From the IMG/VR virus record IMGVR_UViG_3300024988_000006: DNA of 64,000 nt, one strand, 5' to 3'. Numbering within the stretch: the first letter of the stretch is position 1; the number at the start of each line of letters is the position of its first letter. This stretch comes from a virus. The notes beneath the pieces were generated by a model, which did no database searches, had not been told where the DNA came from, and worked only from the letters and a program-made list of their open reading frames with translations. The position numbers were made by a program, and so were the translations under genes. Below, piece after piece: positions 1-61,917 of this stretch.

Positions 1-457
1 TTTCTTTCCAGCCCGGCGGCGGCACAGCATACACCACCGAACGGTTTTCCCACTGATGATGAATTGCAATTGCGTTTATGGGTGCGTATGGGTTTGATAT
101 GGAAGAGAACCCAATTTCGGGGTTATAATCAACCTCAATATCAAGAAATGTGACGTGTAAATTGGGGATTGTTGCGTTGTAGTAGTATTGGGAGAGAATT
201 TTTACTTCTGGTGGAATATCAGATTCATACAGTTTGACTCTTCGTCCTAAAAGCTGCTGTTTAACAGCATACATTTCTCCACCGCTATCGAATTCGAATT
301 TGGCTAGTTTGTTACCAAAAATGCTTTTGTATTCACCAGCCTCGTCTTCCATATAAAAATATGATGGTGCTGGGTATTTGACAACTTTGCGTTGTCCGTC
401 AACTCGTTCCCAAACGGTGACCTCGTCTTTTTGTTTGATTGCAGAAATATAACTCAT
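1..457 (-). CDS. gp43: Family B DNA polymerase, N-terminal part (runs off the window start)
   Basis: Not in the ORF track. Manual translation from ATG at 457 (AAGGA SD): MSYISAIKQKDEVTVWER...LYESDIPP...HVTFLDIEVDYNPEIGFSSISNPYAPINAIAI, with a PolB ExoI motif (FLDIEV). Confidence 0.85.
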   Translation of the reverse strand, partial: MSYISAIKQKDEVTVWERVDGQRKVVKYPAPSYFYMEDEAGEYKSIFGNKLAKFEFDSGGEMYAVKQQLLGRRVKLYESDIPPEVKILSQYYYNATIPNLHVTFLDIEVDYNPEIGFSSISNPYAPINAIAIHHQWENRSVVYAVPPPGWKE

Positions 458-5796: not shown

Positions 5797-5816
5797 TGTA
5801 ATTCTCCTATTGTATC

Positions 5817-5824: not shown

Positions 5825-5828
5825 AGTG

Positions 5829-5856
5829 TTGACTTGTTGTAAAAACACCGTATAAT
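5829..5856 (+). promoter_or_regulatory. Sigma70-type promoter for gp55
   Basis: TTGACT-16 nt-TATAAT. Confidence 0.7.
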
Positions 5857-5892
5857 TATTAGATATAACAAAAATAATAAAGGAAGTATGTT

Positions 5893-6435: not shown

Positions 6436-6481
6436 TTAAATAAAGTAGTAAAAATAAGAATAATAATAAAGAGGTTTCATT

Positions 6482-7549: not shown

Positions 7550-7562
7550 GGAACAATAAAGA

Positions 7563-9359
7563 ATGTTGAAATTTTTGTATCTCTCAATCAGAAACTTCAT
7601 GAGTTATGGCAATAATATAACTCTTGTTAATCTGCATAACCCCGGAACGACACTAATTGTTGGCGAGGATCTTGACAATACCACCAATGGGCAGGGTGGT
7701 AATGGTGTAGGGAAGACAACAATCATGAATGCACTAACGTTTTGTGTGTACGATAAACCCATTTCCAAAGTTAAAGTTGATGAGCTCATTAACAACGTAA
7801 ACAAGAAAAATATGGAGGTATCTGTTATCTTCCAAAAGGGTGATTGGTACTATAAGATCATTCGAGCTCGTAAAATGAAGGCAGGTGCCGCTGGCAACTA
7901 TGTTAAATTATACGAAAAATTTGGTTCGGATGAATTTACGGATGAAGATGAGAAAACCTTAGATAGTATTGCTAATACAGATAGGCGCATTGAAGACATT
8001 ATGGGCATGTCATACGACATGTTTGTAAGAATTGTTGTCATTTCAGCTAATCATGTACCATTTTTGGACCTTCCTGTTAGTCACCCAACACAACCAAACC
8101 AAACTGACTTCATCGAACGTTTGTTTGAGTTGACCCTATTGTCCGAGAAGGCTTGCTCCCTGAAGGATGCCATTAAGTCCACGGAAGAAACCCTTAAAAT
8201 ACAAAAAATTAAAACCGAACAATTGGATAAAGAACACACCCGTCTCAAAGAACAAATTAAATCAGCCAGGCTACGTGTTATCAATTGGGAACGCACCAAT
8301 GAAGATACTATTGAAAACCTTGAACGCAAGCTGGAAAAAATTGCTAATGTCAACTTCGAAAATGAGCGTCAGTTACACGAAGAGTTGAAGGTTGTTGAGG
8401 CAGATCTCAACGCCATTTTATCAAAACAGAAAGATTTGATAAAGGCAGTTAAAAAATATAACCAAGTTCAGGAGAAAATGAGCAACGATCTTGTTCATTT
8501 GAAAGATGATAAGTGCCCATACTGTTTACAACAATTCCAAAATGCTAAGGATAAGATTGAGGAATGTCAAAAAGCTCTGGATGATGCTCATGAAAAATTA
8601 AACAACACGAATGAAATGTTAAAAGAGGTTGATGATGCCGCTGTGGATATGGTAGAAGCTAAGTTGCAACTATCGCGTCGGATTACGGTTCAGAATCTAG
8701 AAGAATTGATCGAAATTAAAAACCAAAGTCAAGTAATTCGCGACAAAATAGAGGATTTGAGAAATGCAGTTAACCCATTCTTAGAGCCTCTGGACGAGCT
8801 TGAAAACATTACCATTGAAGCAGTAGATTACAGCGAAATCAACAGATTGAAAAAGTTAATTGATCATCAACAATTTTTAGTCAAACTGTTGACCAAGAAG
8901 GATAGTTTTGTTAGAAAGGCGTTTTTGAATAAGAACATTCCATTCTTAAATGCTCGACTTCAGTTGTATCTATTCCAATTGGGTTTGACACATAAAGTTG
9001 AATTTACACACGAGATGACAGCAGAAATTAGCCAGTTCAGCCGACCAATGAGTTTTGGTAACTTGTCCAATGGCCAACGAGCTCGTGTCAATTTAGCTCT
9101 GTCGATGGCATTTCGAGATGTCTTACAAAAAATTCACACGCCAATTAACATTTGTTTATTGGATGAGGTTCTGGATGTTGGTTTGGATACTGTTGGTGTC
9201 CAATCAGCAGCAAGGATGCTTAAACGCAAATCACGCGACGAATCATTGAGTATGTACATTATTTCACACCGCGATGAAGTCGATTCCACATTTGACAGAA
9301 CAATGACGGTACAACTGAGCAAGGGATTTTCCTATATCAAAGAAGAAGCTAATGAATGA
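7563..9359 (+). CDS. gp46: Rad50/SbcC-like ATPase subunit
   Basis: Walker A GNGVGKTT, coiled coil with CPYC hook, LSNGQ signature, LLDEVLD Walker B. Confidence 0.92.
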   Translation: MLKFLYLSIRNFMSYGNNITLVNLHNPGTTLIVGEDLDNTTNGQGGNGVGKTTIMNALTFCVYDKPISKVKVDELINNVNKKNMEVSVIFQKGDWYYKIIRARKMKAGAAGNYVKLYEKFGSDEFTDEDEKTLDSIANTDRRIEDIMGMSYDMFVRIVVISANHVPFLDLPVSHPTQPNQTDFIERLFELTLLSEKACSLKDAIKSTEETLKIQKIKTEQLDKEHTRLKEQIKSARLRVINWERTNEDTIENLERKLEKIANVNFENERQLHEELKVVEADLNAILSKQKDLIKAVKKYNQVQEKMSNDLVHLKDDKCPYCLQQFQNAKDKIEECQKALDDAHEKLNNTNEMLKEVDDAAVDMVEAKLQLSRRITVQNLEELIEIKNQSQVIRDKIEDLRNAVNPFLEPLDELENITIEAVDYSEINRLKKLIDHQQFLVKLLTKKDSFVRKAFLNKNIPFLNARLQLYLFQLGLTHKVEFTHEMTAEISQFSRPMSFGNLSNGQRARVNLALSMAFRDVLQKIHTPINICLLDEVLDVGLDTVGVQSAARMLKRKSRDESLSMYIISHRDEVDSTFDRTMTVQLSKGFSYIKEEANE

Positions 9360-15630: not shown

Positions 15631-18210
15631 ATGGCAGATCTATCGTCGGAACAAATGGCAGCACTTAATAGATTTTTGGGCACATTGACCAATTCTGCTG
15701 GTGCTGTAAGTCGTGGTATGAACGACCTGAATGATGTCGTTAATAGACGCGTGCGTGCCGAAAAGGCCGACGCATTATTAGTTGATAAGATGAGTAAGAG
15801 CAAGAAGGTTTACATTGACCGCATTGCTGAAATGAATAAGACATTATCGGGTGCAAACAGCAAGATGTCAATATTCGCTGGCTCAATCCACCTAGCTGAC
15901 AAGGGGTTCAACAAACTATTAACGTCTTCAGACGTCACAGCTGATTATTTACAAAACAGATTTCCTAAAGAAATAGAAAAGGGATTGTCGTCATTCGTTT
16001 CAAAAACGGGTGTTGCTATTAATGATTTCAGAGATGTGATGCGTCTACAAGATATTAGTAGTGAAACAAAGCGATTAGTAGAGGGATTTGCTGATGGCAC
16101 CCGTACACAATATCATCATGTCAAAGAATATATGGATTTACTGGGTGATGCTGGGACATCGATAACCAAGATGGCAGGAATGTCAGGAATCGCCGCTGCT
16201 GAGTTTAAAGATTTAACTAATAAAGTGGAGCAGGCTCGTAAAGGTACAGTGGAGCGCGACCAAGCCGAAGCTGCTGTGTCTAAGTTTGTTGTATCCAACC
16301 AAGATAAACTTGCTAAGTCCGCAATCAAATTGTCAGCAACATTAGCAGAAGTTGCCGATGAATCCAACCATCGCAGTAAGTTTGTTGCTGCGCATTGGGA
16401 TGCAGTAGAGGCACAGGGCAAATTTGGCAAGCTCATAGGTACACATATGCGACCTGGCGGAGGCGGAATTCCAACTGCGCTGCGCGCATTAGAGATTTCC
16501 GCTGTAAGTGCATCATATAATTTAGTACGTTCATTTGGTTCAAAGGCCATGACTGAGCTTATGGATATGGCTCGCACAGGCATGCAAAAAGGTGTTGAGC
16601 CATTTCCGAAGATAGCTGCACAATTGCGTATGTCTGGTAAAGATTACCAGGAGATTATGGCAACCAACAAACAAGCTGTAGCATCGTCTATCGGAGGATA
16701 TACCACCTTTAATGATCTTATGATTAAACACAATGCTGAATATATGGATATTACAGGTAAAGATCCGGTTCTTGCTGGAAAAACAGCAGCGGGCGCTATC
16801 ACATTAATGAAGAGTTTTTCTGGTGCTGCAATGACTACCAAAGAAGTATCTAGTGGTATGACGGATATATCCCAAGATATGGGTAAAATGAGGGATATTT
16901 TTGGCATGACCGCTCAAGACACATTAGAGATGAACAAGCGTATCATGGAGAGTGCCGGCATTCAAGAAAATATCATCAGAATGAATAAGGAAGAACGTGC
17001 TGCGTTACGTACGAGTATCAATGCTCGAGTTGAAGAATATGGTTTAATGGGGTTATCAGCAAAAAAGGCCGAAGAGTTAGTTACACTTACCCAGAAAGCA
17101 TTGGGAATAAAGAGTCCAAAAGACATTGTTCGTGATTCTATGAAAGCAGCCCAATACGCATCACAAGTTGGCTTGGGGGGCCGAGATGCTCAGATGATGG
17201 CTGCTTTGTTACGTAAAAGGGCTACTGTTGGTTTAACTGGCGAAGAAGGTAAACAGTTGGAAGGATATGCAAACCAAGTCGCTAAATTAGAGATGAGTAT
17301 GCAAAAACGCCAAGCTGGAATGGATGAAGGTGGTCAGCTAGCCTTGCAGGGCATGCGTTCACACTTCGATCAAGCTATGGGAGTGGATGAAAAAAGAATT
17401 ATTGCTAGCCAAAAAGAGGTAGAAATGGCGAAGGGCTTAGCTGCTCAGGGCGGGAAGGCTTTAGGTGCAGGTAAGGGTGGCGTGATGGCAACTGGTGGCA
17501 CATTGCTTGATGTAAAAAATGCAATAGATACCCTAAATTCTAATGTTACAGGCACATGGGCCTTTTGGGGTGCTGCTATTGTTGGCGCCATTACGGTTTC
17601 TACTATAGGTACGAAGGGTGTTAAAGACATCCTCTCTAAAGGTCTCGGTGGAATTGAAAAAATGGGCGGAAGAACAGCAAAAGATTTGCTTACCGGAACA
17701 GCAGATGTTGTTAAATCCAGTAAAACTCTTGGCTCTATTGGTGGTGTGTTAAAAGGAGCTGCTAGTCTAAAAGGTGGTTTGGTTGGTGCTGCTTTGGGTA
17801 TTGGTAGTCAGTTTCTTCCCGAAGACTCGACCGCCGGTAAATTATTACAATCTAAAACTGCTCAAGGCGCCATGTGGGGGTCTATGTTGGGTCCTATGGG
17901 CGCTTTGGCGGGTGGCGCAATAGGTGGGGCGTGGGATTTGTATGATTATGCAACATCGCCTACAGCTCCTAACCAAACCCCACCAGAGATGGCGGCATCC
18001 GTACAAGCCGAGACAAAGAAAAAGCATGAAGACCGGCAAGAAAAAACTGTGGACATTAACCAATTAATGCTAACACAATTACAACAATCCAATATGAAAT
18101 TGGATAATGTTACCAAAACTTTACAAGAGGGTAACGAGCTGTATGCTATGACAGAAGAAGAGAAAAAAGCTCTAATTGCAAAACGTAAAGTTAGTACAAT
18201 GAGGGGATAA
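15631..18210 (+). CDS. Probable tape measure protein
   Basis: 859 aa, Ala/Gly/Met-rich and helical with a GALAGGAIG-type C-terminal region; sits beside the chaperone pair and portal. Confidence 0.65.
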   Translation: MADLSSEQMAALNRFLGTLTNSAGAVSRGMNDLNDVVNRRVRAEKADALLVDKMSKSKKVYIDRIAEMNKTLSGANSKMSIFAGSIHLADKGFNKLLTSSDVTADYLQNRFPKEIEKGLSSFVSKTGVAINDFRDVMRLQDISSETKRLVEGFADGTRTQYHHVKEYMDLLGDAGTSITKMAGMSGIAAAEFKDLTNKVEQARKGTVERDQAEAAVSKFVVSNQDKLAKSAIKLSATLAEVADESNHRSKFVAAHWDAVEAQGKFGKLIGTHMRPGGGGIPTALRALEISAVSASYNLVRSFGSKAMTELMDMARTGMQKGVEPFPKIAAQLRMSGKDYQEIMATNKQAVASSIGGYTTFNDLMIKHNAEYMDITGKDPVLAGKTAAGAITLMKSFSGAAMTTKEVSSGMTDISQDMGKMRDIFGMTAQDTLEMNKRIMESAGIQENIIRMNKEERAALRTSINARVEEYGLMGLSAKKAEELVTLTQKALGIKSPKDIVRDSMKAAQYASQVGLGGRDAQMMAALLRKRATVGLTGEEGKQLEGYANQVAKLEMSMQKRQAGMDEGGQLALQGMRSHFDQAMGVDEKRIIASQKEVEMAKGLAAQGGKALGAGKGGVMATGGTLLDVKNAIDTLNSNVTGTWAFWGAAIVGAITVSTIGTKGVKDILSKGLGGIEKMGGRTAKDLLTGTADVVKSSKTLGSIGGVLKGAASLKGGLVGAALGIGSQFLPEDSTAGKLLQSKTAQGAMWGSMLGPMGALAGGAIGGAWDLYDYATSPTAPNQTPPEMAASVQAETKKKHEDRQEKTVDINQLMLTQLQQSNMKLDNVTKTLQEGNELYAMTEEEKKALIAKRKVSTMRG

Positions 18211-42503: not shown

Positions 42504-45500
42504 TTGGCTATAATTGACGACGCATTTAGAGTAGATGCCTTGAGCATTCAAGACATCGTAGCCATATTTCAAGGCTCCGCCGATCCACGTACGGGAGTGG
42601 GGCAAGATGCTCCCGTGGGGTCCCTTTTTCTTGAAAGTACGACAGGTAAACTATATGTAAAAATAGGCACTGGCGTATTTGACTGGCAATCATTCGTATC
42701 TGGTGTTGGTATTAATGCCAACAACGCATCAACTGGATTGCTTACTGGTGGCGTTGTGTCGATTAATGCAGACCCAACAAAAATTAACATAGCCGCCGGC
42801 GTGGGCATTGTAGTAAACAACCATACTGACCCTATTAATCCAACAGCCCAAATAGTATCGTGGGCAAATATTACTGGTGTAACAGTTACTAATCTAGCAA
42901 CGGCAGACCGTTCAAGCATTGGCATCACCAGCATTGGTACTGTAACACAATCGCCGACATCTTTCTCTAATTCACAGCTTCGTGATTATGTTAAACTGGC
43001 TGATTTGGATCATGCAAACCGTACAAGTGTAAGCGCCCTTCGGAACACACCAAATGCAGCATTTGATGTTGGTGTTAGGTTACATGATTTGGCACACGCT
43101 ATTGGACCAATTAATGTGTCTGGTAACGTTTTTACTGCCAATGGCGCAAACTTAATCCTAAACAAGAGCGCTGGACAAACGTACATTGTTGGATCAAACT
43201 TTCAAACAGACAAAAGCGATCCTGATACCACTCTTGATGGTGCACTTGTTCCTGTTACGTTTAGATACAGCTACCGAGATGGTTCTGGTGGATGGATTAC
43301 CAGCTCTCCTGTAACTACAATTGACCCTAATTTGTGGGATGACGGTTCGGGTACACTCCAAGTTGTGCCAAATGGTAGATATTCAGCCCAACGAGTGATA
43401 TATTTTGGTGGCGCCAATGAAGTGCGTGTTCAGTACAGTCAAACAACATATTCAAACATTGATGCTGCACACAATAACGTAATTGACCCCAACTACATAT
43501 TAAATCCTGATTATTATGATGGTATAATCAGAGCCTATGTTATTGTAAAAAGTTCTACCACAGACTTAACCGATCCTGCCGCGTCTCTAATCATTGCCGG
43601 TTCTAAATTTGGCACTGAAAGTGGTGGTATTGTAACTAGCACCACTACTCTACAACAAGCTTACCTAAATTCAATAACACCAGAAATCACCACGATTACA
43701 GCACTAGGTGCCGTGACAATTAAAGAAGGATCTGGTGTTGGTGGAAACCTGTTTGAAGGTTACGACAGTGCCAACAATCTAGTGTTTTCAGTGGGAGTTA
43801 ACGGTAGTGTTACGTCTGGCTTAGTAAACGGGCGTGATGTTGCTACAGATGGTAGCACATTAGATGCCCATATTGCAGATTTCAACAACCCTCACCAAAC
43901 AAGCTTGCTTAACTTGGGTGATGTAGCCATTACTACACCTGTTGTGGGACAAGTGCTATCGTGGAATGGTACAAACTGGACGAACCAAACATTACCAGCA
44001 ACATTGAGTGATTCGGGTGCAAATGGTATCGTTGTTCGTACCGCACTCAACACCACGACAGCAAGAACATTAACAGCGCCAGCAGCCGGTTTAACAATCA
44101 CTAATCCGGACGGTGTTTCAGGCAATCCAACATTTGCATTAGCAAACGACTTAGCCGCTATAGAAGCATTGAACGGTACAGGATTGTACGCCCGCACAGC
44201 TACTGATACCTGGGCTGCTAGAACCATTACCGGTACAGCAAATACTATCACGGTTACAAATGGGGCAGGTACTGCAGGTAATCCTACAGTCACCATTGCT
44301 ACTAATCCTGTGTTGCCTGGAACAGAATCTGTTACACTACCATCTGGTAGCACAGCAGGTCGCCCCACTACACCTGTTGCTGGAATGTATCGTTTTAACA
44401 CAACAACACTTACGTCTGAAGTTTACAACGGTTCAGCATGGTTATCAACTTCAAACCAAGGCACAGTTACTTCTGTCGCTGCTAACGGTGGCACAACGGG
44501 ACTTACATTCACAGGTAGTCCAATTGTTGGTGCAGGCACCCTAACATTATCGGGCACCCTAACAACTGCAAATGGTGGCACAGGTTTATCAACAATTGGC
44601 ACAGCAAACCAAATACTTGGTGTAAATGCAGGAGCCACAGGTCTTGAATACAAAACTATTACAGCAGGAACTGGTATAAATCTTGTTGACGCTGCAAACT
44701 CTGTTACAATTTCCGCCACCAACAACGGTACTGTAACATCAGTTGGTTTATCCGCTCCATCTATCTTTACAACTAGTGGTTCGCCAGTTACTTCTACTGG
44801 TACACTAACACTCACTCTTGCCACTCAAGTTAAGAACACAGTATTTGCGGGGCCAGCGGCAGGAGCAGACGCTACCCCAACATTCCGCACACTATCACTA
44901 GTTAACAACGATGTATCTGACGTGTTAATAACAACCCCAACGAATGCACAGGTATTAACTTACAATTCTAGTACATCTAAGTGGATTAACAGCACCCAAA
45001 CAGCGACATCATACTCCACCGTAATAAGTGCATGGACGTTAGCTTCTGGAAATCAGTACTATGCCGATGTTGTGCATAACTTGGGCACATTTAATGTAGT
45101 AATTAGTTTGTTTAATGCAACAACTAATGCATTGATACAAGCCAATAGCATTGTATTAACCAACACCAACACCGCAAGAATTACGGTTACGGGCACACCC
45201 GCATATAACATTCGTTGTAGCATTATCGCAAACGGTACCACTATCGCGGCCGGCGGTAGCACACCAAGTTCTGTTATTGTTCAAAGCAACGGCGTGCCAC
45301 TAACTGGCACTTATACAACATTAAACGTTGACGGTGGGTTAAGTGTTGTTAATAGCGGGGGCGGCACTGCTACAATATCTACCGCCTCTTCCGTCCCATT
45401 GCGTGTGTTGTCATACTTTGCTACTAGCCTTGACTCACCCAACAATGCCGACTGGGTTATTAATGCACTAGCACCAACTGTGTCTGATCCAACGCGCCCA

Positions 45501-45890
45501 GCTATGAACGTTCGTCAGTTTTCTAATACCACTGAACAAGGTGTGGGTATGTATGTGCCTATTCCATCTGGCGCTACTTCGATGACTATATCGTACAGAG
45601 GGCGAACAACTACTGCCCCAGCCGCTGCTGCTGCATTGCAAATGAAACTGTATACACGAAACATTCCAAATAATGCTGCTGTCGGTTCGTGGACAGCAGG
45701 TACCAATTTAACAGCAGTTACTGTGCCAACCAATGCATACGTACAATATTACACACAAACAATTACATTGTCCTCATTAGCATTAACAGCTGGCAATTTG
45801 TATCAATTTGAATTGACACGTAATGTTGGTGTTGCAGGGAATTTAGCTTATAACTGGTTGATGAATGAGTTAACTCTTTCGTTCACGTAG
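42504..45890 (+). CDS. Long tail fibre-like protein
   Basis: 1128 aa, T/S/G/N-rich; GNPT repeats, GTVTSV repeats, GGTG, HNLG domain. Confidence 0.7.
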   Translation: MAIIDDAFRVDALSIQDIVAIFQGSADPRTGVGQDAPVGSLFLESTTGKLYVKIGTGVFDWQSFVSGVGINANNASTGLLTGGVVSINADPTKINIAAGVGIVVNNHTDPINPTAQIVSWANITGVTVTNLATADRSSIGITSIGTVTQSPTSFSNSQLRDYVKLADLDHANRTSVSALRNTPNAAFDVGVRLHDLAHAIGPINVSGNVFTANGANLILNKSAGQTYIVGSNFQTDKSDPDTTLDGALVPVTFRYSYRDGSGGWITSSPVTTIDPNLWDDGSGTLQVVPNGRYSAQRVIYFGGANEVRVQYSQTTYSNIDAAHNNVIDPNYILNPDYYDGIIRAYVIVKSSTTDLTDPAASLIIAGSKFGTESGGIVTSTTTLQQAYLNSITPEITTITALGAVTIKEGSGVGGNLFEGYDSANNLVFSVGVNGSVTSGLVNGRDVATDGSTLDAHIADFNNPHQTSLLNLGDVAITTPVVGQVLSWNGTNWTNQTLPATLSDSGANGIVVRTALNTTTARTLTAPAAGLTITNPDGVSGNPTFALANDLAAIEALNGTGLYARTATDTWAARTITGTANTITVTNGAGTAGNPTVTIATNPVLPGTESVTLPSGSTAGRPTTPVAGMYRFNTTTLTSEVYNGSAWLSTSNQGTVTSVAANGGTTGLTFTGSPIVGAGTLTLSGTLTTANGGTGLSTIGTANQILGVNAGATGLEYKTITAGTGINLVDAANSVTISATNNGTVTSVGLSAPSIFTTSGSPVTSTGTLTLTLATQVKNTVFAGPAAGADATPTFRTLSLVNNDVSDVLITTPTNAQVLTYNSSTSKWINSTQTATSYSTVISAWTLASGNQYYADVVHNLGTFNVVISLFNATTNALIQANSIVLTNTNTARITVTGTPAYNIRCSIIANGTTIAAGGSTPSSVIVQSNGVPLTGTYTTLNVDGGLSVVNSGGGTATISTASSVPLRVLSYFATSLDSPNNADWVINALAPTVSDPTRPAMNVRQFSNTTEQGVGMYVPIPSGATSMTISYRGRTTTAPAAAAALQMKLYTRNIPNNAAVGSWTAGTNLTAVTVPTNAYVQYYTQTITLSSLALTAGNLYQFELTRNVGVAGNLAYNWLMNELTLSFT

Positions 45891-52513: not shown

Positions 52514-53428
52514 ATGGGAAAACTTACATTAGAAGCACTCAAAGCACAATTCAAAAAGCCTGATACCAATGAAGGCGGCAATCTACCAAACAACTACTTT
52601 CCGTTCTGGAATATGAAAATTGGTGAACAAGCAACAATTCGTTTCCTTCCTGACAAAAACACCGACAACCCAATGGGGTTCCTTGTTGAAAAACACATGC
52701 ACACTCTTACCATCAATGGCGAAAAGAAGTCCGTGCCATGCTTGAAAATGTATGGCGAAGATTGTCCAATCTGCAAAGTATCTGCTGCTTACTACAAAGC
52801 AGAAGATAAGGATAATGGTAAGAAGTATTGGAAGAAAAAGCAATACATCGGTCAAGTATTAGTTGTTGAGGATCCTCTTCCTGCTGACAAAGAAACAAGC
52901 GAAACTCATGAAGGTAAAGTTCGTTTCATTGCACTTGGTAATCAGATTTATGATCTTATCAAAGCAGCCTTTGAAGATGGTGATCTCGAAGACATCCCCT
53001 TCGACTACGAAAATGGTACTAACTTCATCGTTAAAAAGAAGGAACAAGGTGAATATGCCTCCTATGCAACTAGCAAATTTGCAAAACATGCCAGTGCTCT
53101 TGACGACGACACCATCGAAAACGTTAAAGGTCAGTTGATTGATCTGTCGACTCTTCTTCCCAAGAATCCTGGTCTTGAAAAGGTCGAGGCTATGTTGGAA
53201 GCAGCTATGAACGGCACCGAATACAAAACTGGTGAGCGTCCAACTAAGGTTGACGATGATGGCGATGACGATGATGTTCCTGCTCCAAAAGTTGAAAAAG
53301 CCAAACCTGCTCCTGCCAAAGTTGCTAAACCTGCAGCTGAAAAGGTTGAGGAAGATGGCACGGACGATGACGATGATGCCGACCGCATCCTCGAAGAAAT
53401 TCGTAAGCGTCGCGCTAACAAGGGTTAA
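52514..53428 (+). CDS. gp32: Single-stranded DNA-binding protein
   Basis: IRFLPD, H...CL..YGEDCPIC zinc site, YWKKKQY, acidic tail. Confidence 0.9.
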   Translation: MGKLTLEALKAQFKKPDTNEGGNLPNNYFPFWNMKIGEQATIRFLPDKNTDNPMGFLVEKHMHTLTINGEKKSVPCLKMYGEDCPICKVSAAYYKAEDKDNGKKYWKKKQYIGQVLVVEDPLPADKETSETHEGKVRFIALGNQIYDLIKAAFEDGDLEDIPFDYENGTNFIVKKKEQGEYASYATSKFAKHASALDDDTIENVKGQLIDLSTLLPKNPGLEKVEAMLEAAMNGTEYKTGERPTKVDDDGDDDDVPAPKVEKAKPAPAKVAKPAAEKVEEDGTDDDDDADRILEEIRKRRANKG

Positions 53429-53437
53429 TTCTCCACA

Positions 53438-53468
53438 ATGGTGGGAGTCCGTTCGGACTCCCACCCAT
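53438..53468. other. Strong GC-rich hairpin with no U-tract after gp32
   Basis: GTGGGAGTCC-GTTC-GGACTCCCAC. Confidence 0.7.
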
Positions 53469-53573
53469 CAAACGTATTCGCAAAATGAGATTTTTAACAA
53501 ATCTTGATACACAAATTGCTGCAATGGTAGTTGATGGTATCACCCTAAAAATAAATATAATGAGGAGAATATA

Positions 53574-54674
53574 ATGGCTAGTATGTCATTTTTAAAAGAC
53601 TTCGAAAAGGCAATGGATAAAGTCGAAGGCATAGGAGGCTCGTCTGAACCCCCAAGATATTGGTATCCAACAGGCAATTATTGTTTAAACAGAATTCTTT
53701 CGGGTAGTTTCTTTAACGGCTTCCCACAAGGTCGTATCACTGGATTGGTTGGGCCGTCTGGCTCAGGTAAAAGTTTCGTAATTGGTAATGCGGTCAAAAG
53801 CGCACAAGATAGTGGTGCATTTGTGTTGGTTATTGACTCTGAAAATGCTCTTGATGATGATTATATGACAAAGATTGGTGTGGATGTTGAAAACAACTAT
53901 CTGTACAAATCCGTCACCACAATTCCACAAGTTATCAAAGTTGTTTCCACCTTCTTGAAAGGTTATGATGCTGAGTATGGCAATGATCCAAACGCACCAC
54001 AAGTATTCATTGCCATCGATAGTTTGGACATGTTATCAACCGAATCTGAGCTTGAACACTTCACAAAAGGTGACTCATCAAGCGATCAGGGTTTGCGGGC
54101 GAAGCAACTCAAACAAATGCTTCGTCAATTTGTTCAAGCCATCAAGGGTAAGAATGTAGCTATGGCCGTCACGGCACAGGTATATCAAGCAACTGCACAA
54201 CAAATTCTTGCAGGTGAAGGCGTATGGGTTGTCAACCAAGCTATTCGTTATGCTCTTTCGCAGATTGTACTGCTCACCAAACTCAAACTCAAAGATGAGA
54301 ACAAGGATATCACAGGCATTAGGATGAAAGCAGAAGGATTCAAAACCCGTTTCACCAAGCCGTTTCAGTCTGTTACAGTTGAAGTTCCTTACGATACAGG
54401 AATGGACCCACTGTCGGGCTTGTTGGAGGTAGCATTATCTTTGAATGTTATTGAGAAAAAGGGTTCACGCTATTCGTTTGTCGGTGAAGATGATACGTGG
54501 TTTGCTAAGGACATCGCCAACTATGCTGAAAAAATCTTAGTCAAGGCTGAGACTATGGGTAATGCATTCCTTAAAGCATCTGTATCTGATACTGATGTTG
54601 ATTCTAACCAAGTCGAAAAATCATCTGACACTAAAGCAAGACGCAAGCAGCGTCAAGCCGCAGACGAGGAATGA
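53574..54674 (+). CDS. uvsX: RecA-like recombinase
   Basis: GRITGLVGPSGSGKS, IDSENA, IDSLD, DQGLRAK, KTRFTKPF. Confidence 0.9.
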   Translation: MASMSFLKDFEKAMDKVEGIGGSSEPPRYWYPTGNYCLNRILSGSFFNGFPQGRITGLVGPSGSGKSFVIGNAVKSAQDSGAFVLVIDSENALDDDYMTKIGVDVENNYLYKSVTTIPQVIKVVSTFLKGYDAEYGNDPNAPQVFIAIDSLDMLSTESELEHFTKGDSSSDQGLRAKQLKQMLRQFVQAIKGKNVAMAVTAQVYQATAQQILAGEGVWVVNQAIRYALSQIVLLTKLKLKDENKDITGIRMKAEGFKTRFTKPFQSVTVEVPYDTGMDPLSGLLEVALSLNVIEKKGSRYSFVGEDDTWFAKDIANYAEKILVKAETMGNAFLKASVSDTDVDSNQVEKSSDTKARRKQRQAADEE

Positions 54675-54692
54675 TACCCAATTAAATCCGAT

Positions 54693-54724
54693 AAAGACAC
54701 CACGCATCGCCGTGGTTTCTTTTT
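54693..54724 (+). terminator. Intrinsic terminator
   Basis: AAAGACACCACG-CATCGC-CGTGGTTTCTTTTT. Confidence 0.7.
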
Positions 54725-54822
54725 GTTAAATAAATAGGTTTGTGGCAATTGCTGTTGATTGATAAACTTATTTGGTGTAAAGTTGTCATAACTTATCAAA
54801 AATAAAAACAAAAAGGATAAAA

Positions 54823-55380
54823 ATGATAGAGGAATTATTAAGACTGTTTGAACGGCGTGATACTGCGTTTGAACAAGCCACAACAAACATTTCCAAACAT
54901 ATTGATTTTGTATATGAAGCTATCGTTGAGTTTCTGAACGAAAATCCCCACAATATTTCGTGGGATAGTGTTGATGTAAACTCGAGCAATATGATTGTGA
55001 TTATTGCACGCATCTTTGAAGATGGCATTGATCCAACACAACAACACGAATCACAGATCCGATTGTTAACTATCGGAATCCCATTCGAAATCGTGAGTGC
55101 CGCTTCCAAAAACGCAGTTATTCGATTTTTGACTGAGATGGAAAAAATTCGTCCTGCAAAATCACCGACCCCAGCCGGCAAGCGAACTTTATCTGAGTTA
55201 ATAAGTGATGCTGATGACGGACAAGATATTGACTTGTTGTTAGCCGAGGGTGAGGATATTAGTCCGGATTTGTTAGATATATTACGTGAAGAAGCCAGCG
55301 ACCTTGACGAATATTTTAGCGAATCATCAACATCAACACCAACATTTTTATCCCCTTATAAAAAAAGGACCTTGCACTAA
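54823..55380 (+). CDS. Hypothetical protein
   Basis: AAGGA SD; intact 185 aa, ends KKRTLH. Confidence 0.55.
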   Translation: MIEELLRLFERRDTAFEQATTNISKHIDFVYEAIVEFLNENPHNISWDSVDVNSSNMIVIIARIFEDGIDPTQQHESQIRLLTIGIPFEIVSAASKNAVIRFLTEMEKIRPAKSPTPAGKRTLSELISDADDGQDIDLLLAEGEDISPDLLDILREEASDLDEYFSESSTSTPTFLSPYKKRTLH

Positions 55381-55851
55381 ATGGACAACACTGTAAATGC
55401 TTTAACTCTTGTACGTGAAAGCATAACCAACATTCCTACTATTGTTGAAGTTTACGAAGAGTACCTTTCGAATTTCAAAGAAAATCTTACTATTAAAGGT
55501 AAGCGTTTAGAAATGGCAAACTTTGAACAAGCATCGTGGCTAAGCTATTATGATGAAAGGCGTGTAGAACTTCATGCTGTTGTCCGTTATATGGAAATGT
55601 ATGTCGATAAGGTTCGTGGCAAATTGTGGAAAGACTACAACGAAAATTATTCACGCGAATTAAGTCCAAAAGACAAAGAACAATATATTAATCACGAAAA
55701 GGCTTATTTGACAGCCAATGAATTATTTTTAGAAATTCGTGAGTTGTATGAAAAGTATGAGTCAGCAGTTGATTCATTCAAAGCAAGGGGATATGCCTTG
55801 AACAATATTACCCGTATCAGAATTGCTGATTTGGGAGACTTTGTGGTTTAA
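55381..55851 (+). CDS. uvsY: Recombination mediator
   Basis: Helical, between uvsX and uvsW; YINHEKAYL...AVDSFKARGYALNNITRIR. Confidence 0.75.
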   Translation: MDNTVNALTLVRESITNIPTIVEVYEEYLSNFKENLTIKGKRLEMANFEQASWLSYYDERRVELHAVVRYMEMYVDKVRGKLWKDYNENYSRELSPKDKEQYINHEKAYLTANELFLEIRELYEKYESAVDSFKARGYALNNITRIRIADLGDFVV

Positions 55852-55853
55852 AA

Positions 55854-57329
55854 ATGTCAGAAGAACGACTTGTAGAGAAAACCTTTGCTAAAAAGGTCAA
55901 GATAATTATTCAAGATGAAGTAAATTGTATTGTGACAGGATTACATCCTGACCACCTCATGTACTTTTATGAAGAATATGGAATCTTCACAGATAACTAT
56001 TTCTTTACCCCAAAATACAAAATTGGTATTTGGGACGGAAAAATTCGTTATTTCACTAAAGAGGGGCATACTTATGTTCTTCTTCTTGACGAAATTGTGA
56101 AGAAAGTTGTTAAATTTGGTTACAAAGTTAATATTGAAGATCGTCGTGTAAACAATTACTGTGATGTTCCTCCAATAGATGCCACTTACCTAAGCGGTTT
56201 TATAGACCCAAAAACAGATAAACCATACACAGTTCGCCCCTATCAAGTCGAAGGTCTCAACGAGTTGTTTGCTGAAGGTTTTGGTATCATAATTGCTGGC
56301 ACCGGCGCTGGAAAAACAACCATCAACACCATTCTTATAGACCACTATGGTAAAAACCACAATTTACGCAGTATAACTATTGTGCCATCCGTGTCTCTCA
56401 TTGGACAAACCGTTGATACCTTTAAAACGTTTGGCCTCGACGTTGGCCGTTACGACGGTGAGATCAAAGATTTAAAACATCAGCACATTGTATCAACATG
56501 GCAAGCACTTCAAAACTATCCTCAATTAATGAAAAGCTTTCAGGTTGTGGTTGTTGATGAATGTCATGGTTTAAAGGGTAAGATATTAACTAATCTGTTG
56601 AACGAACACGGCAAGCATATAACACACCGTTTCGGGCTAACTGGCACATTACCTAAGGGCAAAACAGACTCAATGGCTGTTCGTATTGCTATTGGTCCTG
56701 TTCGTTATGTGATACCCGCACATGAATTAATCGAACAGGGGTGGTTAGCTACTCCAAACATCAGTGTTATGCAACTCGACGATATTGAACGATTAAATGA
56801 ACTATACAAAAACGATGACAAGATTAGTTTTGATAGTGAAACAGCCTTTTTACAGACTGATTCGACGCGCCTGAGTTGGATTGCTGAGTACCTTTCTATA
56901 AAAGCTGCCGAACACAAAGGTAACGTTTTGTGCTTAGTTAATAGCGTTTCTTTTGGTAAGAAATTGAAAAAACTATTACCAGAAGCACACTTCCTATACG
57001 GTAAAGATAAACAAAAAGTACGCAAATCTGTTTACGACTTGTTTGAAACCCACAACAACTTAATTGTTATTGCTACCGTACAGATTGCAGGTGTTGGGTT
57101 AAGTATTGATCGTATTTTTAACTTAGTGTATATCGATGGTGGTAAGTCATTCATTCGTGTAATTCAGGTGATTGGTAGAGGGTTACGTAAAGGAAAAGAC
57201 AAGGACAGTGTCGACGTAACAGACATATGCAGTAACTTGGATTATTCCAGAAAACACCTACGCGAACGAGTCAAATACTACAAAGAAGCAAGATATTCTC
57301 ACAAAATCCACAAAGTAACATATCATTAA
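55854..57329 (+). CDS. uvsW: SF2 DNA helicase
   Basis: RPYQ, GTGAGKT, STWQAL, VDECH, GLTGT, QVIGRGLR. Confidence 0.9.
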   Translation: MSEERLVEKTFAKKVKIIIQDEVNCIVTGLHPDHLMYFYEEYGIFTDNYFFTPKYKIGIWDGKIRYFTKEGHTYVLLLDEIVKKVVKFGYKVNIEDRRVNNYCDVPPIDATYLSGFIDPKTDKPYTVRPYQVEGLNELFAEGFGIIIAGTGAGKTTINTILIDHYGKNHNLRSITIVPSVSLIGQTVDTFKTFGLDVGRYDGEIKDLKHQHIVSTWQALQNYPQLMKSFQVVVVDECHGLKGKILTNLLNEHGKHITHRFGLTGTLPKGKTDSMAVRIAIGPVRYVIPAHELIEQGWLATPNISVMQLDDIERLNELYKNDDKISFDSETAFLQTDSTRLSWIAEYLSIKAAEHKGNVLCLVNSVSFGKKLKKLLPEAHFLYGKDKQKVRKSVYDLFETHNNLIVIATVQIAGVGLSIDRIFNLVYIDGGKSFIRVIQVIGRGLRKGKDKDSVDVTDICSNLDYSRKHLRERVKYYKEARYSHKIHKVTYH

Positions 57330-57332
57330 CTG

Positions 57333-57361
57333 TTGCTGTTTGTGTGCTTTGGTTATATAAT
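57333..57361 (+). promoter_or_regulatory. Sigma70-type promoter
   Basis: TTGCTG-17 nt-TATAAT. Confidence 0.55.
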
Positions 57362-57389
57362 AAATCAATAATAAAAATAAAGGTTTACT

Positions 57390-57875
57390 ATGTTAGTTTT
57401 TGATGAAAATTCCAAACCGTTGATTATAGATAGTATCTATACGCCAACACTCACGAGTCATGTGTGGATTCTTGATTTGTCCATTATGGATTTCACACTT
57501 GCACCTCTCGAAGTTCTTGAAGAAATTACCTGTCCATCCGTCATGATTGAAGTGTGTGGGTTCAAATTCATTCTGCCAGCACACTGGTATGTGTTAGTAT
57601 ACGATGAAGAAACAACACAAGTTGATACTGTTTGTGTATCGGAATTATCGGGCAGAGAGTTTATGGCACTCGGATATGGCCCGAATAAAAACAAGGCCTT
57701 CCCTGCAAAAATCGTTGTTGTTGATTACAACGCACAATTCAAGAATGTTGGTCCATCACTAAACAAACACCAAATGTTGTGCCATCCCATTGGGCCCAAT
57801 GCTTGGATAAATATCTCTCCCACAGACGTCTACAACAAATACTTGAAAGATGTCATTGTTGGTGATATCATATAA
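57390..57875 (+). CDS. Hypothetical protein with a possible degenerate Hint fold
   Basis: Hand alignment of the hydrophobic pattern to inteins; lacks Cys1, TxxH and terminal HN. Confidence 0.4.
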   Translation: MLVFDENSKPLIIDSIYTPTLTSHVWILDLSIMDFTLAPLEVLEEITCPSVMIEVCGFKFILPAHWYVLVYDEETTQVDTVCVSELSGREFMALGYGPNKNKAFPAKIVVVDYNAQFKNVGPSLNKHQMLCHPIGPNAWINISPTDVYNKYLKDVIVGDII

Positions 57876-57888
57876 TAGGAGAAATAAA

Positions 57889-58287
57889 ATGGCAAAGAGA
57901 AACACAAAAACAACTCTAACAGTCACAGATTTTCGTTCGTGGTTAGAGGGTGTAGAAGATATGCAAGGTGCAGACTGGAGTCCATCATTGGAGCAATGGA
58001 AAAAGATTCGTGCTAAAATCGAAATGCTGGAAGAGGTTGACCTCGACGATATTATGGCGGTTGTAAAAACAGCGAAACCTGCCCCCGCTCAAGTGGGACA
58101 GGTATCTGTCCCATCAGGTCCAATACCACGAGCAGCCATACCAATGTCGCAGAGCTTCCTTGATGAGGTTGGATCAACACCAAAACTAACTACCGTGATG
58201 CCTTCGTTACCAAATTCTATTGTCGGCAGCCCCAAAACTCCGGATATCGACACATCCACAGGTGATTATCCAAGCGCATTTGTTTAA
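57889..58287 (+). CDS. Hypothetical protein
   Basis: Start revised to ATG 57889 (AGGAG SD). Confidence 0.55.
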   Translation: MAKRNTKTTLTVTDFRSWLEGVEDMQGADWSPSLEQWKKIRAKIEMLEEVDLDDIMAVVKTAKPAPAQVGQVSVPSGPIPRAAIPMSQSFLDEVGSTPKLTTVMPSLPNSIVGSPKTPDIDTSTGDYPSAFV

Positions 58288-58823
58288 TGAAACCGTACAC
58301 AAATCTAAAAGATAGAGTGTTGTGGTATGATGGGGATTCTACAGTGAATCCCCATGATGTATTACGGCTTTCGACGCCAGGTAATCCATTGTGTGTCACA
58401 GAGTTAACAGACGACATCAAGCAATACAATAGACTTGTTTCAACCGAAGAACGTATAACTGTTAAAGAAGCACTTCGCGATTTTGATATGTCGTGGAACA
58501 TCCCTGACGAATTTAAAAATATTGACGTTAATACATACTTGTATAACAAACTATTCCTTACTGAATCAGATGAGAACCTTACAAACGATGAGATGCAAGT
58601 ACGGATGAAGCGAGTTGCTCAAGAGTTAGCACTATTTAAGAAATTTAAACTATATGATGTGTTACGTACAATTATATACGTAATTGATACCTTTACTCAC
58701 AGAAACGTTGTTTGGGGAGTGGGTCGTGGAAGCAGTGTTGCATCTTATGTGTTGTATTTGATAGGTGTACATGATATTGATAGCGTCAAATATGGGTTAG
58801 ATATTAACGAATTTCTACATTAA
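58287..58823 (+). CDS. Stand-alone DNA polymerase III alpha (DnaE) fragment
   Basis: RVAQELALF...WGVGRGSSVASYVLYLIGVHDIDSVKYGLDINEFL equals DnaE GxGRGS...FERFL; ends before PDIDxD. Confidence 0.8.
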   Translation: MKPYTNLKDRVLWYDGDSTVNPHDVLRLSTPGNPLCVTELTDDIKQYNRLVSTEERITVKEALRDFDMSWNIPDEFKNIDVNTYLYNKLFLTESDENLTNDEMQVRMKRVAQELALFKKFKLYDVLRTIIYVIDTFTHRNVVWGVGRGSSVASYVLYLIGVHDIDSVKYGLDINEFLH

Positions 58824-58865
58824 TTTTGTACGCATAAATAACCATACCCATTAAGGAGAATAATT

Positions 58866-59099
58866 ATGGCAAAAAGAGCAAGAAGTGCCCGCGGAGAAAC
58901 AGTAGATTTTGACCTTTTGGCAATCAAGGCGCAAGAAGCGTTAGCAAAAGCTGGCAAACCAAAAACAGACACTGTACCTACAGTTGAAATTAAACCAACA
59001 GAAAGTTTTGTTGATAAGCGCAATCGTCGTCGCATTAAAAAGGCAACCACTGTTAGCCAAGTGCCAACTATCGATGTGACACCAACTGAAACAAAATAA
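58866..59099 (+). CDS. Small basic hypothetical protein
   Basis: AAGGAG SD; CATAAATA at 58833. Confidence 0.55.
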   Translation: MAKRARSARGETVDFDLLAIKAQEALAKAGKPKTDTVPTVEIKPTESFVDKRNRRRIKKATTVSQVPTIDVTPTETK

Positions 59100-59145
59100 G
59101 CAGTACCAAATAACACAATAACACAATAATATAGAGGAGAGTAGC

Positions 59146-59730
59146 ATGCTCAGACCACTGAAGGATAGCATTTTGTTTGTTTTTAATGAAGAAGTTTCGG
59201 ACGGATTGTTTGTAGAAAATTCCGAATCTGGTATTTACCTTGGTAAGAGTATTGACAGCTCCTCCAAAGAAGCCCGGTGGGCCGTAGTTGCCGCTGTTGG
59301 TCCTGAAGTCAAAACCATCAAAGCTGCTGACCGTGTATTGATCGGTGCTTTGCGTTGGACCGAAGGATTTAAAGCTGGTGATACAAAGCTTTGGAAAACA
59401 GTTGAAAAAGAAATCCTCGCTGTCGATACACCCGACGGTATCAAACTAACGCCACCAGGAAACAATGTCTTCTTTGTTGTTGATAAAAAAGCTGGTAAAG
59501 TAACCGAATCCACTGCTGGTATTTTTGTTGTTGAACAAGCTCATGCTGGTGAAGAAATGACATGGGGCACCGTTAAAGCGGTTGGTCCTGATGTTGACCC
59601 TGATGATATCGCCGTTGGTACTCGAGTATTAGTTAAACGAGACATCATCACAAAATTTATGAAAAACGATGGCGGTGACTTGTATAAGATCACAGAGATT
59701 GACATCGTCGCTGTTGAGGACACGGAGTAA
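59146..59730 (+). CDS. groES: Tandem two-domain GroES/Cpn10 co-chaperonin
   Basis: Domain 1 LRPLKD..SGIYL..VVAAVGP..EILAV; domain 2 LTPPGN..STAGIFV..GTVKAVGP..DIVAV. Confidence 0.85.
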   Translation: MLRPLKDSILFVFNEEVSDGLFVENSESGIYLGKSIDSSSKEARWAVVAAVGPEVKTIKAADRVLIGALRWTEGFKAGDTKLWKTVEKEILAVDTPDGIKLTPPGNNVFFVVDKKAGKVTESTAGIFVVEQAHAGEEMTWGTVKAVGPDVDPDDIAVGTRVLVKRDIITKFMKNDGGDLYKITEIDIVAVEDTE

Positions 59731-59734
59731 GTTT

Positions 59735-60910
59735 ATGCTTTTTATTTTACTGTTAAGTTTGATTACCACGTCCATTGCTGGAGCCGCTGCTTTCTTCAGT
59801 ATCTATGGTTTGGCACAAATTTTTAGTGGTACGTTTTGGGCTGTGGTGTTTATGGGTGCATCGCTGGAAGCTGGTAAATTAGTGGCAGCTTCCTTCCTGT
59901 ACCGATATTGGAGCAAGATTTCGTTTGTGTTGAAAACATACCTCACAGTTGCTGTTATCGTGTTGATGTTTATCACATCCATGGGTATTTTTGGATTCTT
60001 GAGTCAATCATACCAAAAAGATTCGTTACCACTCAAAGAAATGCAAGTCAAAATTGACGGTTTGAAACAAGAACAAGCAACCTTACTTGCTCGTAAGCAA
60101 GCGATTGACACAGCTCGTCAAGATGCTGTATCAGCCGCAGTTAACAACCAATCGACCAAATCTCGCGTTGTTCGTAGTAAGGAACGATTAGCACGTACAT
60201 ATGATACAGAAATTAAAGATATTAACAAACGATTACCCGTTTTAACAAAAGAAATCCAGGACTTGGATACACAAGTATTAACGACTCAATTACACACGGG
60301 TCCAATTACCTACATTGCCAAGGCCTTGGGTCGTGAAATTGATGATGCTACTAAGTGGGTTATTTTCATGCTGATTTCTGCTTTCGATCCGCTTGCTGTT
60401 GCTCTAACGATTGGTGTCAACATTGCCGTTAACATTCGTAAAAAAGAATTTGAACAAGCCAAACAAATTGCATTTGAAAAGGAACGCCAAGACAAATTGG
60501 AACAGATTGAGCGTGAACGTCAGGAACGTATTGATGAACGTGAAGAGGCACGCCTACGCCGTACCGAGGAGCTTGAAGAGGCCAAGTCCAAACTGTTGCA
60601 TGAAACAGAAATTGCATCTTTGCAGCGACAATACGCAAAAATTGTTACAGGCGACGAAGTAATTGAAAGCTTTGATTCTGTCACAACACCAGTAAAAGAA
60701 TCAGTTGAACCAATTCCACAAACACTCCAAACAGAAACGGTGGTTGACCCGGATACCTCCGCCATTGATGACCTCCGCCGTGTATTGGATACAATTACTG
60801 CGAAAAAGGAACCAACTCCTGAAGAATTAACAACAAAACAACAGATAGAATCCATTCTTTCACGTCGTCAGTTGTTGGACAATATGAGAGGTGGTTCTTT
60901 GTCAGAGTAG
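59735..60910 (+). CDS. Multi-pass membrane protein with a coiled-coil domain
   Basis: FSIYGLAQIF, MGASLEAGKLV, SMGIFGFLS, FDPLAVAL. Start revised to 59735. Confidence 0.7.
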   Translation: MLFILLLSLITTSIAGAAAFFSIYGLAQIFSGTFWAVVFMGASLEAGKLVAASFLYRYWSKISFVLKTYLTVAVIVLMFITSMGIFGFLSQSYQKDSLPLKEMQVKIDGLKQEQATLLARKQAIDTARQDAVSAAVNNQSTKSRVVRSKERLARTYDTEIKDINKRLPVLTKEIQDLDTQVLTTQLHTGPITYIAKALGREIDDATKWVIFMLISAFDPLAVALTIGVNIAVNIRKKEFEQAKQIAFEKERQDKLEQIERERQERIDEREEARLRRTEELEEAKSKLLHETEIASLQRQYAKIVTGDEVIESFDSVTTPVKESVEPIPQTLQTETVVDPDTSAIDDLRRVLDTITAKKEPTPEELTTKQQIESILSRRQLLDNMRGGSLSE

Positions 60911-60929
60911 GGTGATGGTTAAATAGTTG

Positions 60930-60958
60930 TTGACTTTACTACTTGAACATCCTATAGT
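60930..60958 (+). promoter_or_regulatory. Sigma70-type promoter
   Basis: TTGACT-17 nt-TATAGT. Confidence 0.65.
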
Positions 60959-60987
60959 AAAAGAACAATTATTACAAAGGAGTTAGT

Positions 60988-61917
60988 ATGGCCGAGTTGC
61001 ATAAGTTGTGGGTAGAAAAGTATCGCCCACAACAAATTGAAGATTACATTTTTCAAGATGATGTTCAAAAAATGGACTTCTTGAAAATGATCAAAAACAA
61101 GTCAATACCCCATTTGTTATTATCAGGCGTGCAAGGCGCCGGCAAAACTACAATCGCTAAAATCCTTATCAACGAATGCGGCATCAGTGACACAGATGTT
61201 ATGATTATCAACGCCTCTGATGAAAATAGTGTTGATGTTATTCGTGAAAAAATCAAATCGTTCGTAACTACATTCGCATTGGGCGATTTTAAAATCGTTC
61301 TGTTGGAGGAAGCTGATTATATATCAGCGGCTGGTCAAGCAGTGTTGCGTGTAATTATGGAACAATATGCTGATGTTGCTCGATTCATCTTAACGTGCAA
61401 CTATGAAAACAAAATTATTCCTGCAGTTAAATCTCGCTGTCAGCACTATCGTTTCAAAGCAAGTGATAAAAACGATATCGCTGAATATGTGGCAAGTATT
61501 CTAATTCAAGAAAAGGTCAAATTTGACTTAGATTTAGTGGATAAATATGTTGATGTTGGTTACCCTGACGTTCGCAAGATTGTTAACCTACTTCAACAAA
61601 ACTGCCACGATGGTGCACTACGTGCACCAAAACAATCATCGGAAGCAGGTGATTACAAATTCGAGCTGTTAAATCTAATTGAATTGGATAATTGGGTTGA
61701 TGCTAGAACATTAGCATGTGCACAAGTTGCTACCGAAGAATGGGAAGATGTGTATCGGTTTTTCTACGAAAATTTACACAAAGCGCCCAAATTTACTGAT
61801 AAATCTAAATGGGAAGAAGGTATCATCATCATCGCAGAACATTTGTATAAGCACAGTATTTGTTCGGATGCTGAAATTAACGCTGCCGCGATGTTCATTC
61901 GTCTCGGTCAAGTATAA
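60988..61917 (+). CDS. gp44: Clamp loader AAA+ subunit
   Basis: LWVEKYRP, GVQGAGKTT, INASDE, LLEEAD, FILTCN, SRC. Confidence 0.92.
   Translation: MAELHKLWVEKYRPQQIEDYIFQDDVQKMDFLKMIKNKSIPHLLLSGVQGAGKTTIAKILINECGISDTDVMIINASDENSVDVIREKIKSFVTTFALGDFKIVLLEEADYISAAGQAVLRVIMEQYADVARFILTCNYENKIIPAVKSRCQHYRFKASDKNDIAEYVASILIQEKVKFDLDLVDKYVDVGYPDVRKIVNLLQQNCHDGALRAPKQSSEAGDYKFELLNLIELDNWVDARTLACAQVATEEWEDVYRFFYENLHKAPKFTDKSKWEEGIIIIAEHLYKHSICSDAEINAAAMFIRLGQV

Follow-up and report, generated by a model that had tools for sequence, protein, structure and literature searches.

The Locus and Its Gene Neighborhood

The DNA analyzed here, which we call the window, is a stretch of 64,000 nucleotides from the IMG/VR virus record IMGVR_UViG_3300024988_000006. 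It contains a 178-codon frame (58287..58823, plus strand) whose ATG overlaps by one base the TAA of the upstream ORF 57850..58287 (TAATG) and which is closed by a TAA of its own, so the clean, start-coupled gene described in the original prediction is indeed present. The product is probably one half of a small family-C DNA polymerase encoded by two separate genes. We refer to it as the N unit, and to the complementary protein found in related phages as the C unit. The features of the window that are needed below are as follows.

2..457, minus strand: family-B DNA polymerase (PolB), first ~150 codons, truncated by the window edge (tblastn)
52514..57329, plus strand: replication/recombination module upstream of the N unit, in the same order as in Xanthomonas phage XacN1
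52514..53428, plus strand: gp32-like SSB (PHROG match)
53574..54674, plus strand: UvsX-like recombinase (PHROG match)
55854..57329, plus strand: helicase (PHROG match)
57850..58287, plus strand: 145-aa gene immediately upstream of the N unit, its TAA overlapping the N-unit ATG
58287..58823, plus strand: predicted N unit of a split minimal Pol III alpha, 178 aa, member of phrog_11127
58287..58493, plus strand: small alpha/beta domain, N-unit residues 1-69 (AF2 secondary structure, pLDDT > 90)
58494..58820, plus strand: helical N-subdomain of the family-C palm, N-unit residues 70-178 (VIA-align, Foldseek)
58722..58733, plus strand: GRGS (G146 R147 G148 S149), G-S loop of the Pol-beta-like nucleotidyltransferase fold (alignment)
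60988..61917, plus strand: gp44/RFC-like clamp-loader ATPase (Pfam AAA, DNA_pol3_delta2)

Two small ORFs separate the UvsX-like recombinase from the helicase, and the clamp loader lies downstream of the N unit by three genes. Flanked upstream by the SSB, UvsX and helicase genes and downstream by the clamp loader, the N unit is linked by its location to DNA replication or recombination. From 55381 to 61917 the window is colinear with ORF249-241 of XacN1: a small ORF, the helicase, a phrog_11279 protein, the 145-aa ORF and the N unit are followed by a 77-aa ORF, a GroES-like ORF, a 413-aa ORF and the clamp loader. Four IMG/VR loci (L028, L024, L033 and L023) are likewise colinear with the window over the N unit, the clamp loader and the genes between them, and L024 and L023 also take in the helicase end of the block. 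The clamp loader is 44-63% identical to those of XacN1, Paride and L028, with the order conserved. The 145-aa upstream gene is homologous to XacN1 ORF246 (E 6e-12), which has the identical 1-nt overlap, and has homologs in L024, L023 and L104; no counterpart was found in Paride or GAP32.

The PolB gene reported in the original prediction could be verified as far as the window reaches. The fragment at the edge matches the PolB of XacN1 (E 6e-31, 45% identity) and that of Paride (E 5e-18) in tblastn, but it covers the N-terminal exonuclease part only, the remainder of the gene being beyond the window edge; a regular-expression search of the window for PolB motifs returned nothing. A Gp23-type capsid protein, portal, sheath, terminase and helicases are also encoded. 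Judged by sequence, the best relatives (XacN1, Xoo-sp13, PA5oct-like and Rak2-like phages) together with the Gp23-type capsid protein, the clamp loader and the PolB N-terminus place the uncultured window phage among the group 2.2 jumbo phages, that is, the Rak2/PA5oct/XacN1-like phages having PolB and an RFC-like clamp loader.

Several other features of the region may be recorded. The GroES-like ORF (59146-59730, plus strand) encodes 194 aa with two GroES-like stretches (phrog_3188), its XacN1 counterpart, ORF243, being 103 aa long. An 859-aa ORF (15631-18210, plus strand) has no PHROG or Pfam match, and the matches of a 1128-aa ORF (42504-45890, plus strand) to virion proteins are exclusively short and repeat-like. 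In L104 (Ga0208090_1000004, 3482-7568) the homolog of the window helicase is matched in three separated pieces (3482-3859, 4955-5206 and 6783-7568), an arrangement that points to interruption by inteins, introns or inserted homing endonucleases there.

The N Unit

Residues 90-177 of the N unit match positions 7-94 of the 260 positions of PF07733 (DNA_pol3_alpha) with an E value of 1.6e-10, above the gathering score of Pfam, and the whole protein is matched by phrog_11127 (171 positions, annotated "DNA polymerase"; E 1e-42). The family HMM detects a single copy in the window (E 9e-74). In phmmer searches of PDB sequences, the residues from 135 or 139 to 177 align with residues 368-406 of Mycobacterium tuberculosis DnaE1 and 412-454 of the Thermus aquaticus alpha subunit; the aligned span runs from GRGS through FERFL of DnaE, and the GRGS of the N unit falls on the GRGS of both bacterial proteins. 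In DnaE this G-S loop grips the triphosphate of the incoming nucleotide.

Structure prediction leads to the same family. The AF2 model, built from an alignment of 87 family members, has a mean pLDDT of 95.2, and in Foldseek the best matches are without exception Pol III alpha or PolC (probability 1.00). With VIA-align, residues 70-178 superpose on residues 277/278-393 of Escherichia coli Pol III alpha (Z 12.3-13.7; rmsd 2.2-2.4 A over ~107 residues), and the top 14 rows (Z >= 8.2) are exclusively DnaE or PolC chains. The gene had been described as covering the post-PHP region of DnaE through GRGS...EFL, and both the Pfam match and the superposition bear this out. The protein terminates in ..NEFLH, which corresponds to FERFL of DnaE, a single residue beyond the EFL motif; its C-terminus thus equals E. 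coli residue 393 and falls 8 residues short of the catalytic D401. The catalytic aspartates of E. coli DnaE are D401, D403 and D555. Pfam finds neither a PHP domain (PF02811 included) nor an intein (Hint) domain in the N unit, and the motif DxDx[DE] is missing from every frame of the window; the absence of PHP, intein and PDIDxD was therefore correctly noted before.

Residues 1-69 occupy the place of the DnaE PHP domain and are specific to the family, with L7, L12, D15, G16 and N48 conserved in the family alignment. When the whole model was submitted to VIA-align, no PDB chain aligned before residue 70, and an ESM Atlas look-up of residues 1-72 returned the N unit's own family alone. The ESM Atlas also contains a protein letter-identical to the product of 58287-58820, which makes a public metagenome assembly the probable source.

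The Predicted Partner in Related Phages

The C unit was found through XacN1 ORF228, which matches PF17657 (the finger model) above the cut-off (E 1.6e-5). This protein of 188 aa reads MDIDIDITPKF...KIDML...IRPNK...KSHAIPYAL, and GAP32_282 is homologous to it (E 4e-32). A separate gene of ~190 codons whose product begins M(P)DIDIDF occurs in XacN1, Xoo-sp13, the PA5oct/Paride phages, GAP32 and the Rak2-like phages, and in IMG/VR contigs, where at least 94 further loci were found. In the 44 IMG/VR loci with delimited genes the ORF start precedes DIDID by 0-5 residues, in exceptional cases by as many as 16. Among 39 aligned C units D2, D4, D6, H34, G37, K66, D68, R135, P136, K138, H172 and Y176 are invariant, and all three catalytic aspartates, RPGK and KSHA..Y are retained. 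The product is labeled "putative membrane protein" in GAP32 (L013, 1775-2425) and CBB (KU574722, 209088-209651) and "hypothetical protein" in most remaining records.

A profile of the 39 sequences matches exclusively Pol III alpha in the PDB (E 2.5e-4), and its matches on T. aquaticus alpha are colinear: 461-521 (MPDIDTDF), 610-702 (KMDFLGL...RPG) and 808-823 (FNKSHAAAY). A profile of three sequences gave nothing relevant against the PDB. The AF2 model of the C unit of L028 has a pLDDT of 94.5; its residues 1-192 align with 401-783 of E. coli alpha, 462-840 of T. aquaticus alpha and 972-1297 of PolC with Z scores of 9.9-10.1, the first unrelated row having a Z score of 3.3. Thus 192 residues stand for a span of 383 in E. 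coli alpha.

Taken from the superpositions of the modeled halves on E. coli alpha, the N unit corresponds to residues 277-393 and the C unit to 401-783, from which the thumb and a large part of the fingers have been lost. The halves are complementary end to end, and the NPERxxM linker alone is missing between them (E. coli 393 | 401). The proposal of a family-C polymerase whose subunits come from separate genes, this gene encoding one of them, is supported by the co-occurrence, in relatives, of this separate ~190-aa protein starting with DIDID. In the complete genomes of XacN1, Paride and GAP32, PF07733 detects the N unit alone, save for a weak match at 56579-56737 of GAP32, which was dismissed as noise (E 0.008, two stops, ORFs without Pfam match), and PF02811 (PHP) has no match in any of the three.

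A DnaQ-like "Pol III epsilon" exonuclease is encoded 2.3 kb downstream of the C unit in XacN1 (ORF223; L103, 2280-2873) and 4-10 kb downstream in L024, L025, L028, L029 and L030. It might proofread for the mini-polymerase; the linkage, with distances of 10 kb or less in 5 of 80 loci, was too loose and was dropped as evidence.

The N-Unit Family and Its Conservation

A full HMMER pass over 1.84 billion representatives yielded 994 representative clusters of N-unit homologs at E <= 1e-3 and 765 at E <= 1e-10. Every one of the best 150 clusters is 114-205 aa long and aligned up to the final residues of the query, and in 75 of the 87 aligned members the C-terminus lies within two residues of the end of the window protein. 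GRGS is invariant in all 87, as are G16, E113 and F176. The position of the FERFL arginine (R390 in E. coli, R452 in T. aquaticus) is occupied by Glu or Asp in 86 of the 87. In the T. aquaticus ternary complex this arginine is presumably near the incoming nucleotide. The replacement is a departure from DnaE and counts against the interpretation as a split polymerase.

A comparison of dN and dS in relatives had been suggested as a check. Between XacN1 and Xoo-sp13, dN is 0.16 for the N unit and 0.09 for the C unit; dS is saturated, which limits the claim to dN far below dS. These sequences indicate that the N-unit family is under purifying selection. Among longer proteins, in a search mode where absence is weak evidence, no fused minimal form of N and C was found; its hits were two calls of chimeric appearance, each on a single contig, and remote DnaE-like proteins of 854-884 aa that lack PHP (E ~1e-4).

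By tblastn the N unit is present in 114 phage records, of which XacN1 is the best isolate (45.6% identity), followed by a second Xanthomonas phage, Xoo-sp13, Stenotrophomonas phages CM1 and RAS14, Ralstonia phage RsoM2USA, the PA5oct/Paride group and the Rak2-like group, which includes GAP32, CBB and K64-1. The window protein is at most 55% identical to any retrieved sequence, the maximum being reached with L028; identity to L104 is 53%. Xoo-sp13 (MN047793.1, L022) has an intact N-unit gene at 16001-16549 on the plus strand (182 aa, 77% identity to that of XacN1), unannotated in GenBank, where a gap lies between Xoosp13_235 and Xoosp13_234. In some recent phage records both halves are annotated as DNA polymerase.

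Co-occurrence and Spacing of the Two Units

The C unit was found in 96 phage records by tblastn. The numbers of records with the N and the C unit are equal in Escherichia (34/34), Erwinia (8/8), Salmonella (8/8), Xanthomonas (4/4) and Yersinia (4/4) phages, and all of the best 16 N-unit records also have the C unit. Four of the five large IMG/VR contigs with a C unit have the N unit as well, the fifth ending 480 bp upstream of C. The distance between the two genes varies. In 10 IMG/VR loci the two genes share a strand and N precedes C by no more than 10 kb. The C unit is 4.7 kb downstream of the N unit in RsoM2USA and 14-15 kb downstream in XacN1, Xoo-sp13, CM1 and RAS14, and in PA5oct and GAP32 it is found 34-44 kb upstream. 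A separation that is usually of kilobases, and sometimes of 34-44 kb, is unusual for obligate subunits and counts against the interpretation as a split polymerase.

Within the window the C unit gave no tblastn match, and the best E value of the 39-sequence profile HMM in six frames was 1.1; the gene had been described as having no downstream continuation, and none was seen. In the four colinear loci L023, L024, L028 and L033 the C unit follows the clamp loader at a distance of 1.8-6.6 kb. The window continues for 2.1 kb after its own clamp loader, and the C-unit gene of the window phage therefore most likely lies just outside. Its position is a prediction, since past ~62 kb the gene order departs from that of XacN1 and Xoo-sp13.

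Comparison with Known Polymerases

A "minimal split Pol III alpha" of group 2.2 jumbo phages was described by Iyer, Anantharaman, Krishnan, Burroughs and Aravind (Iyer et al., 2021; Viruses 13:63; PMC7824862), who judged the two proteins likely to reconstitute an enzyme and favored its cooperation with PolB in strand synthesis or repair. The split point, called unusual in the original prediction, is consequently not novel. Earlier genome papers had recorded a "truncated" alpha in CBB and Atu_ph07. The window protein shares with the system of Iyer et al. (2021) the architecture (an N unit of ~170-190 aa with the G-S loop and no PHP), the phage group, the synteny with the clamp loader and, in relatives, a distant and separate partner; its sequence is new. 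Beyond that description, we place the break between E. coli residues 393 and 401, show that the C-unit ORFs start from M(P)DIDIDF, model each half with high confidence, and report that the first 69 residues of the N unit are a domain without a match and that an acidic residue stands in for the FERFL arginine.

Compared to the bacterial DnaE proteins of E. coli (2HNH), T. aquaticus (3E0D) and M. tuberculosis (5LEW), the N unit has the palm N-subdomain fold and the GRGS and H-D-x-D...F motifs in common. It is, however, one tenth the size, without PHP, catalytic aspartates, thumb, fingers, clamp-binding, OB and tau-binding parts, and the catalytic half is a separate gene product.

The cyanobacterial split-intein DnaE (DnaE-n and DnaE-c) is likewise a family-C polymerase made from two distant genes. 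There the break is far downstream, after approximately residue 770, and so the split site differs. In the phage proteins no intein is involved: the N unit ends ..EFLH and the C unit starts with a Met directly before DIDID. No intein halves flank the break, and assembly of N and C would have to be non-covalent. The PHP-less, contiguous DnaE-like proteins (P0153-P0158; phrog_11165), on contigs of up to 188 kb, contain PF07733, PF17657 and PF14579 in 854-884 aa and are only distantly related to the N unit (E ~1e-4, 37-42% identity over 39-60% of the query).

A Probable Two-Gene Polymerase and Its Alternatives

We consider it likely that the product of 58287..58823 is the N-terminal part of a minimal family-C (Pol III alpha-like) nucleotidyltransferase made from two genes, of the kind typical of group 2.2 jumbo phages. 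The N unit would supply the helical N-subdomain of the palm with the triphosphate-holding GRGS loop. The C unit would contribute the DIDID strand with two catalytic aspartates, a K-x-D strand in which a conserved lysine precedes the third aspartate, and a reduced finger domain (RPGK, KSHA..Y). Because the break lies inside the Pol-beta-like core, between the helix after the G-S loop and the DxD-bearing strand, neither protein has an active site alone. The two presumably form a non-covalent heterodimer without an intein and thereby rebuild it; physical assembly, polymerase activity and a biological role are presumed here for the pair. The invariance of GRGS, the three aspartates, the lysine and the finger residues argues for a working active site in the predicted enzyme. 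It would act beside the PolB replicase, probably in accessory synthesis or repair. In the literature we found no experiments on the assembly or activity of the split minimal Pol III alpha.

The predicted enzyme is without the PHP, thumb, HhH, clamp-binding, OB and tau-binding parts of DnaE, and with the thumb and the accessory domains for DNA and clamp binding missing, processive synthesis is not self-evident. The two pieces might thus assemble into a specialized nucleotidyltransferase, active in gap filling, lesion bypass, primer extension, tailing or the making of another nucleotide product, with the replisome relying on PolB alone. The reduction of the C unit to 192 residues from 383, the loss of the domains just listed, the presence of PolB in relatives and, as an N-terminal fragment, in the window, and the acidic residue in place of the FERFL arginine are all in keeping with such an enzyme. 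It is nevertheless somewhat unlikely to be the correct description, as the finger motifs RPGK and KSHA..Y are invariant, and in DnaE these presumably touch the incoming dNTP and the template. In addition, the gene sits amid replisome genes, and cooperation with PolB is the role favored by Iyer et al. (2021).

The split could also be functional and not incidental, with the N unit as a regulatory or targeting subunit that activates an otherwise dead C unit only at certain times or sites, such as recombination-dependent replication forks. The pair would then be a conditionally assembled family-C polymerase, the smallest known, whose chemistry may differ from that of DnaE because a conserved acidic residue takes the place of the FERFL arginine. 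This idea comes from the position of the gene in the SSB-UvsX-helicase-clamp-loader operon and from its conserved, unmatched 69-aa domain, and we regard it as improbable.

An action of the N unit alone, as a non-catalytic decoy, adaptor or inhibitor of host Pol III or another part of the replisome, was put forward in the original prediction and now seems very unlikely. The protein has no catalytic aspartate of its own, carries an extra conserved N-terminal domain and is often encoded far from the C unit, points that speak for this reading; but it strictly co-occurs with a complementary partner that begins exactly where it ends, and its nucleotide-binding GRGS loop, needless for mere binding, is invariant in every aligned member. 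The hosts are also many: the N unit occurs in phages of Xanthomonas, Pseudomonas, Ralstonia and enterobacteria, the C unit in Agrobacterium and Sinorhizobium phages as well, with N confirmed in Atu_ph07, and such a range speaks against a fit to any single host protein. Decay of a complete dnaE to a pseudogene, or an artifact of assembly or frameshift, would explain why the N unit spans merely approximately one tenth of a bacterial DnaE and why the CBB genome paper termed its homolog "truncated." We rejected that explanation as extremely improbable on account of the family size (at least 765 clusters of a protein of the same length), the shared C-terminus, dN far below the saturated dS and, in the search mode noted above, the lack of a contiguous minimal form among longer proteins; the confident model and the conserved start coupling and synteny point the same way. 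A contiguous dnaE in relatives with relaxed selection on this copy, named beforehand as the signature of a pseudogene, was not what the relatives displayed.

Implications for Jumbo Phage Replication

The window adds one more, rather divergent member to a family whose general picture has been in print since 2021 and is unchanged by it, and the question of activity and role is an experimental one. If the split polymerase described above does rebuild its active site, two proteins of ~180-190 aa would make up by far the smallest family-C polymerase and a natural minimal model of the catalytic core of the bacterial replicase, and they would be a case of a Pol-beta-like fold divided within its core with no intein involved. 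Jumbo phages of a large clade would then be running a bacterial-type polymerase module beside a PolB of the archaeo-eukaryotic type.
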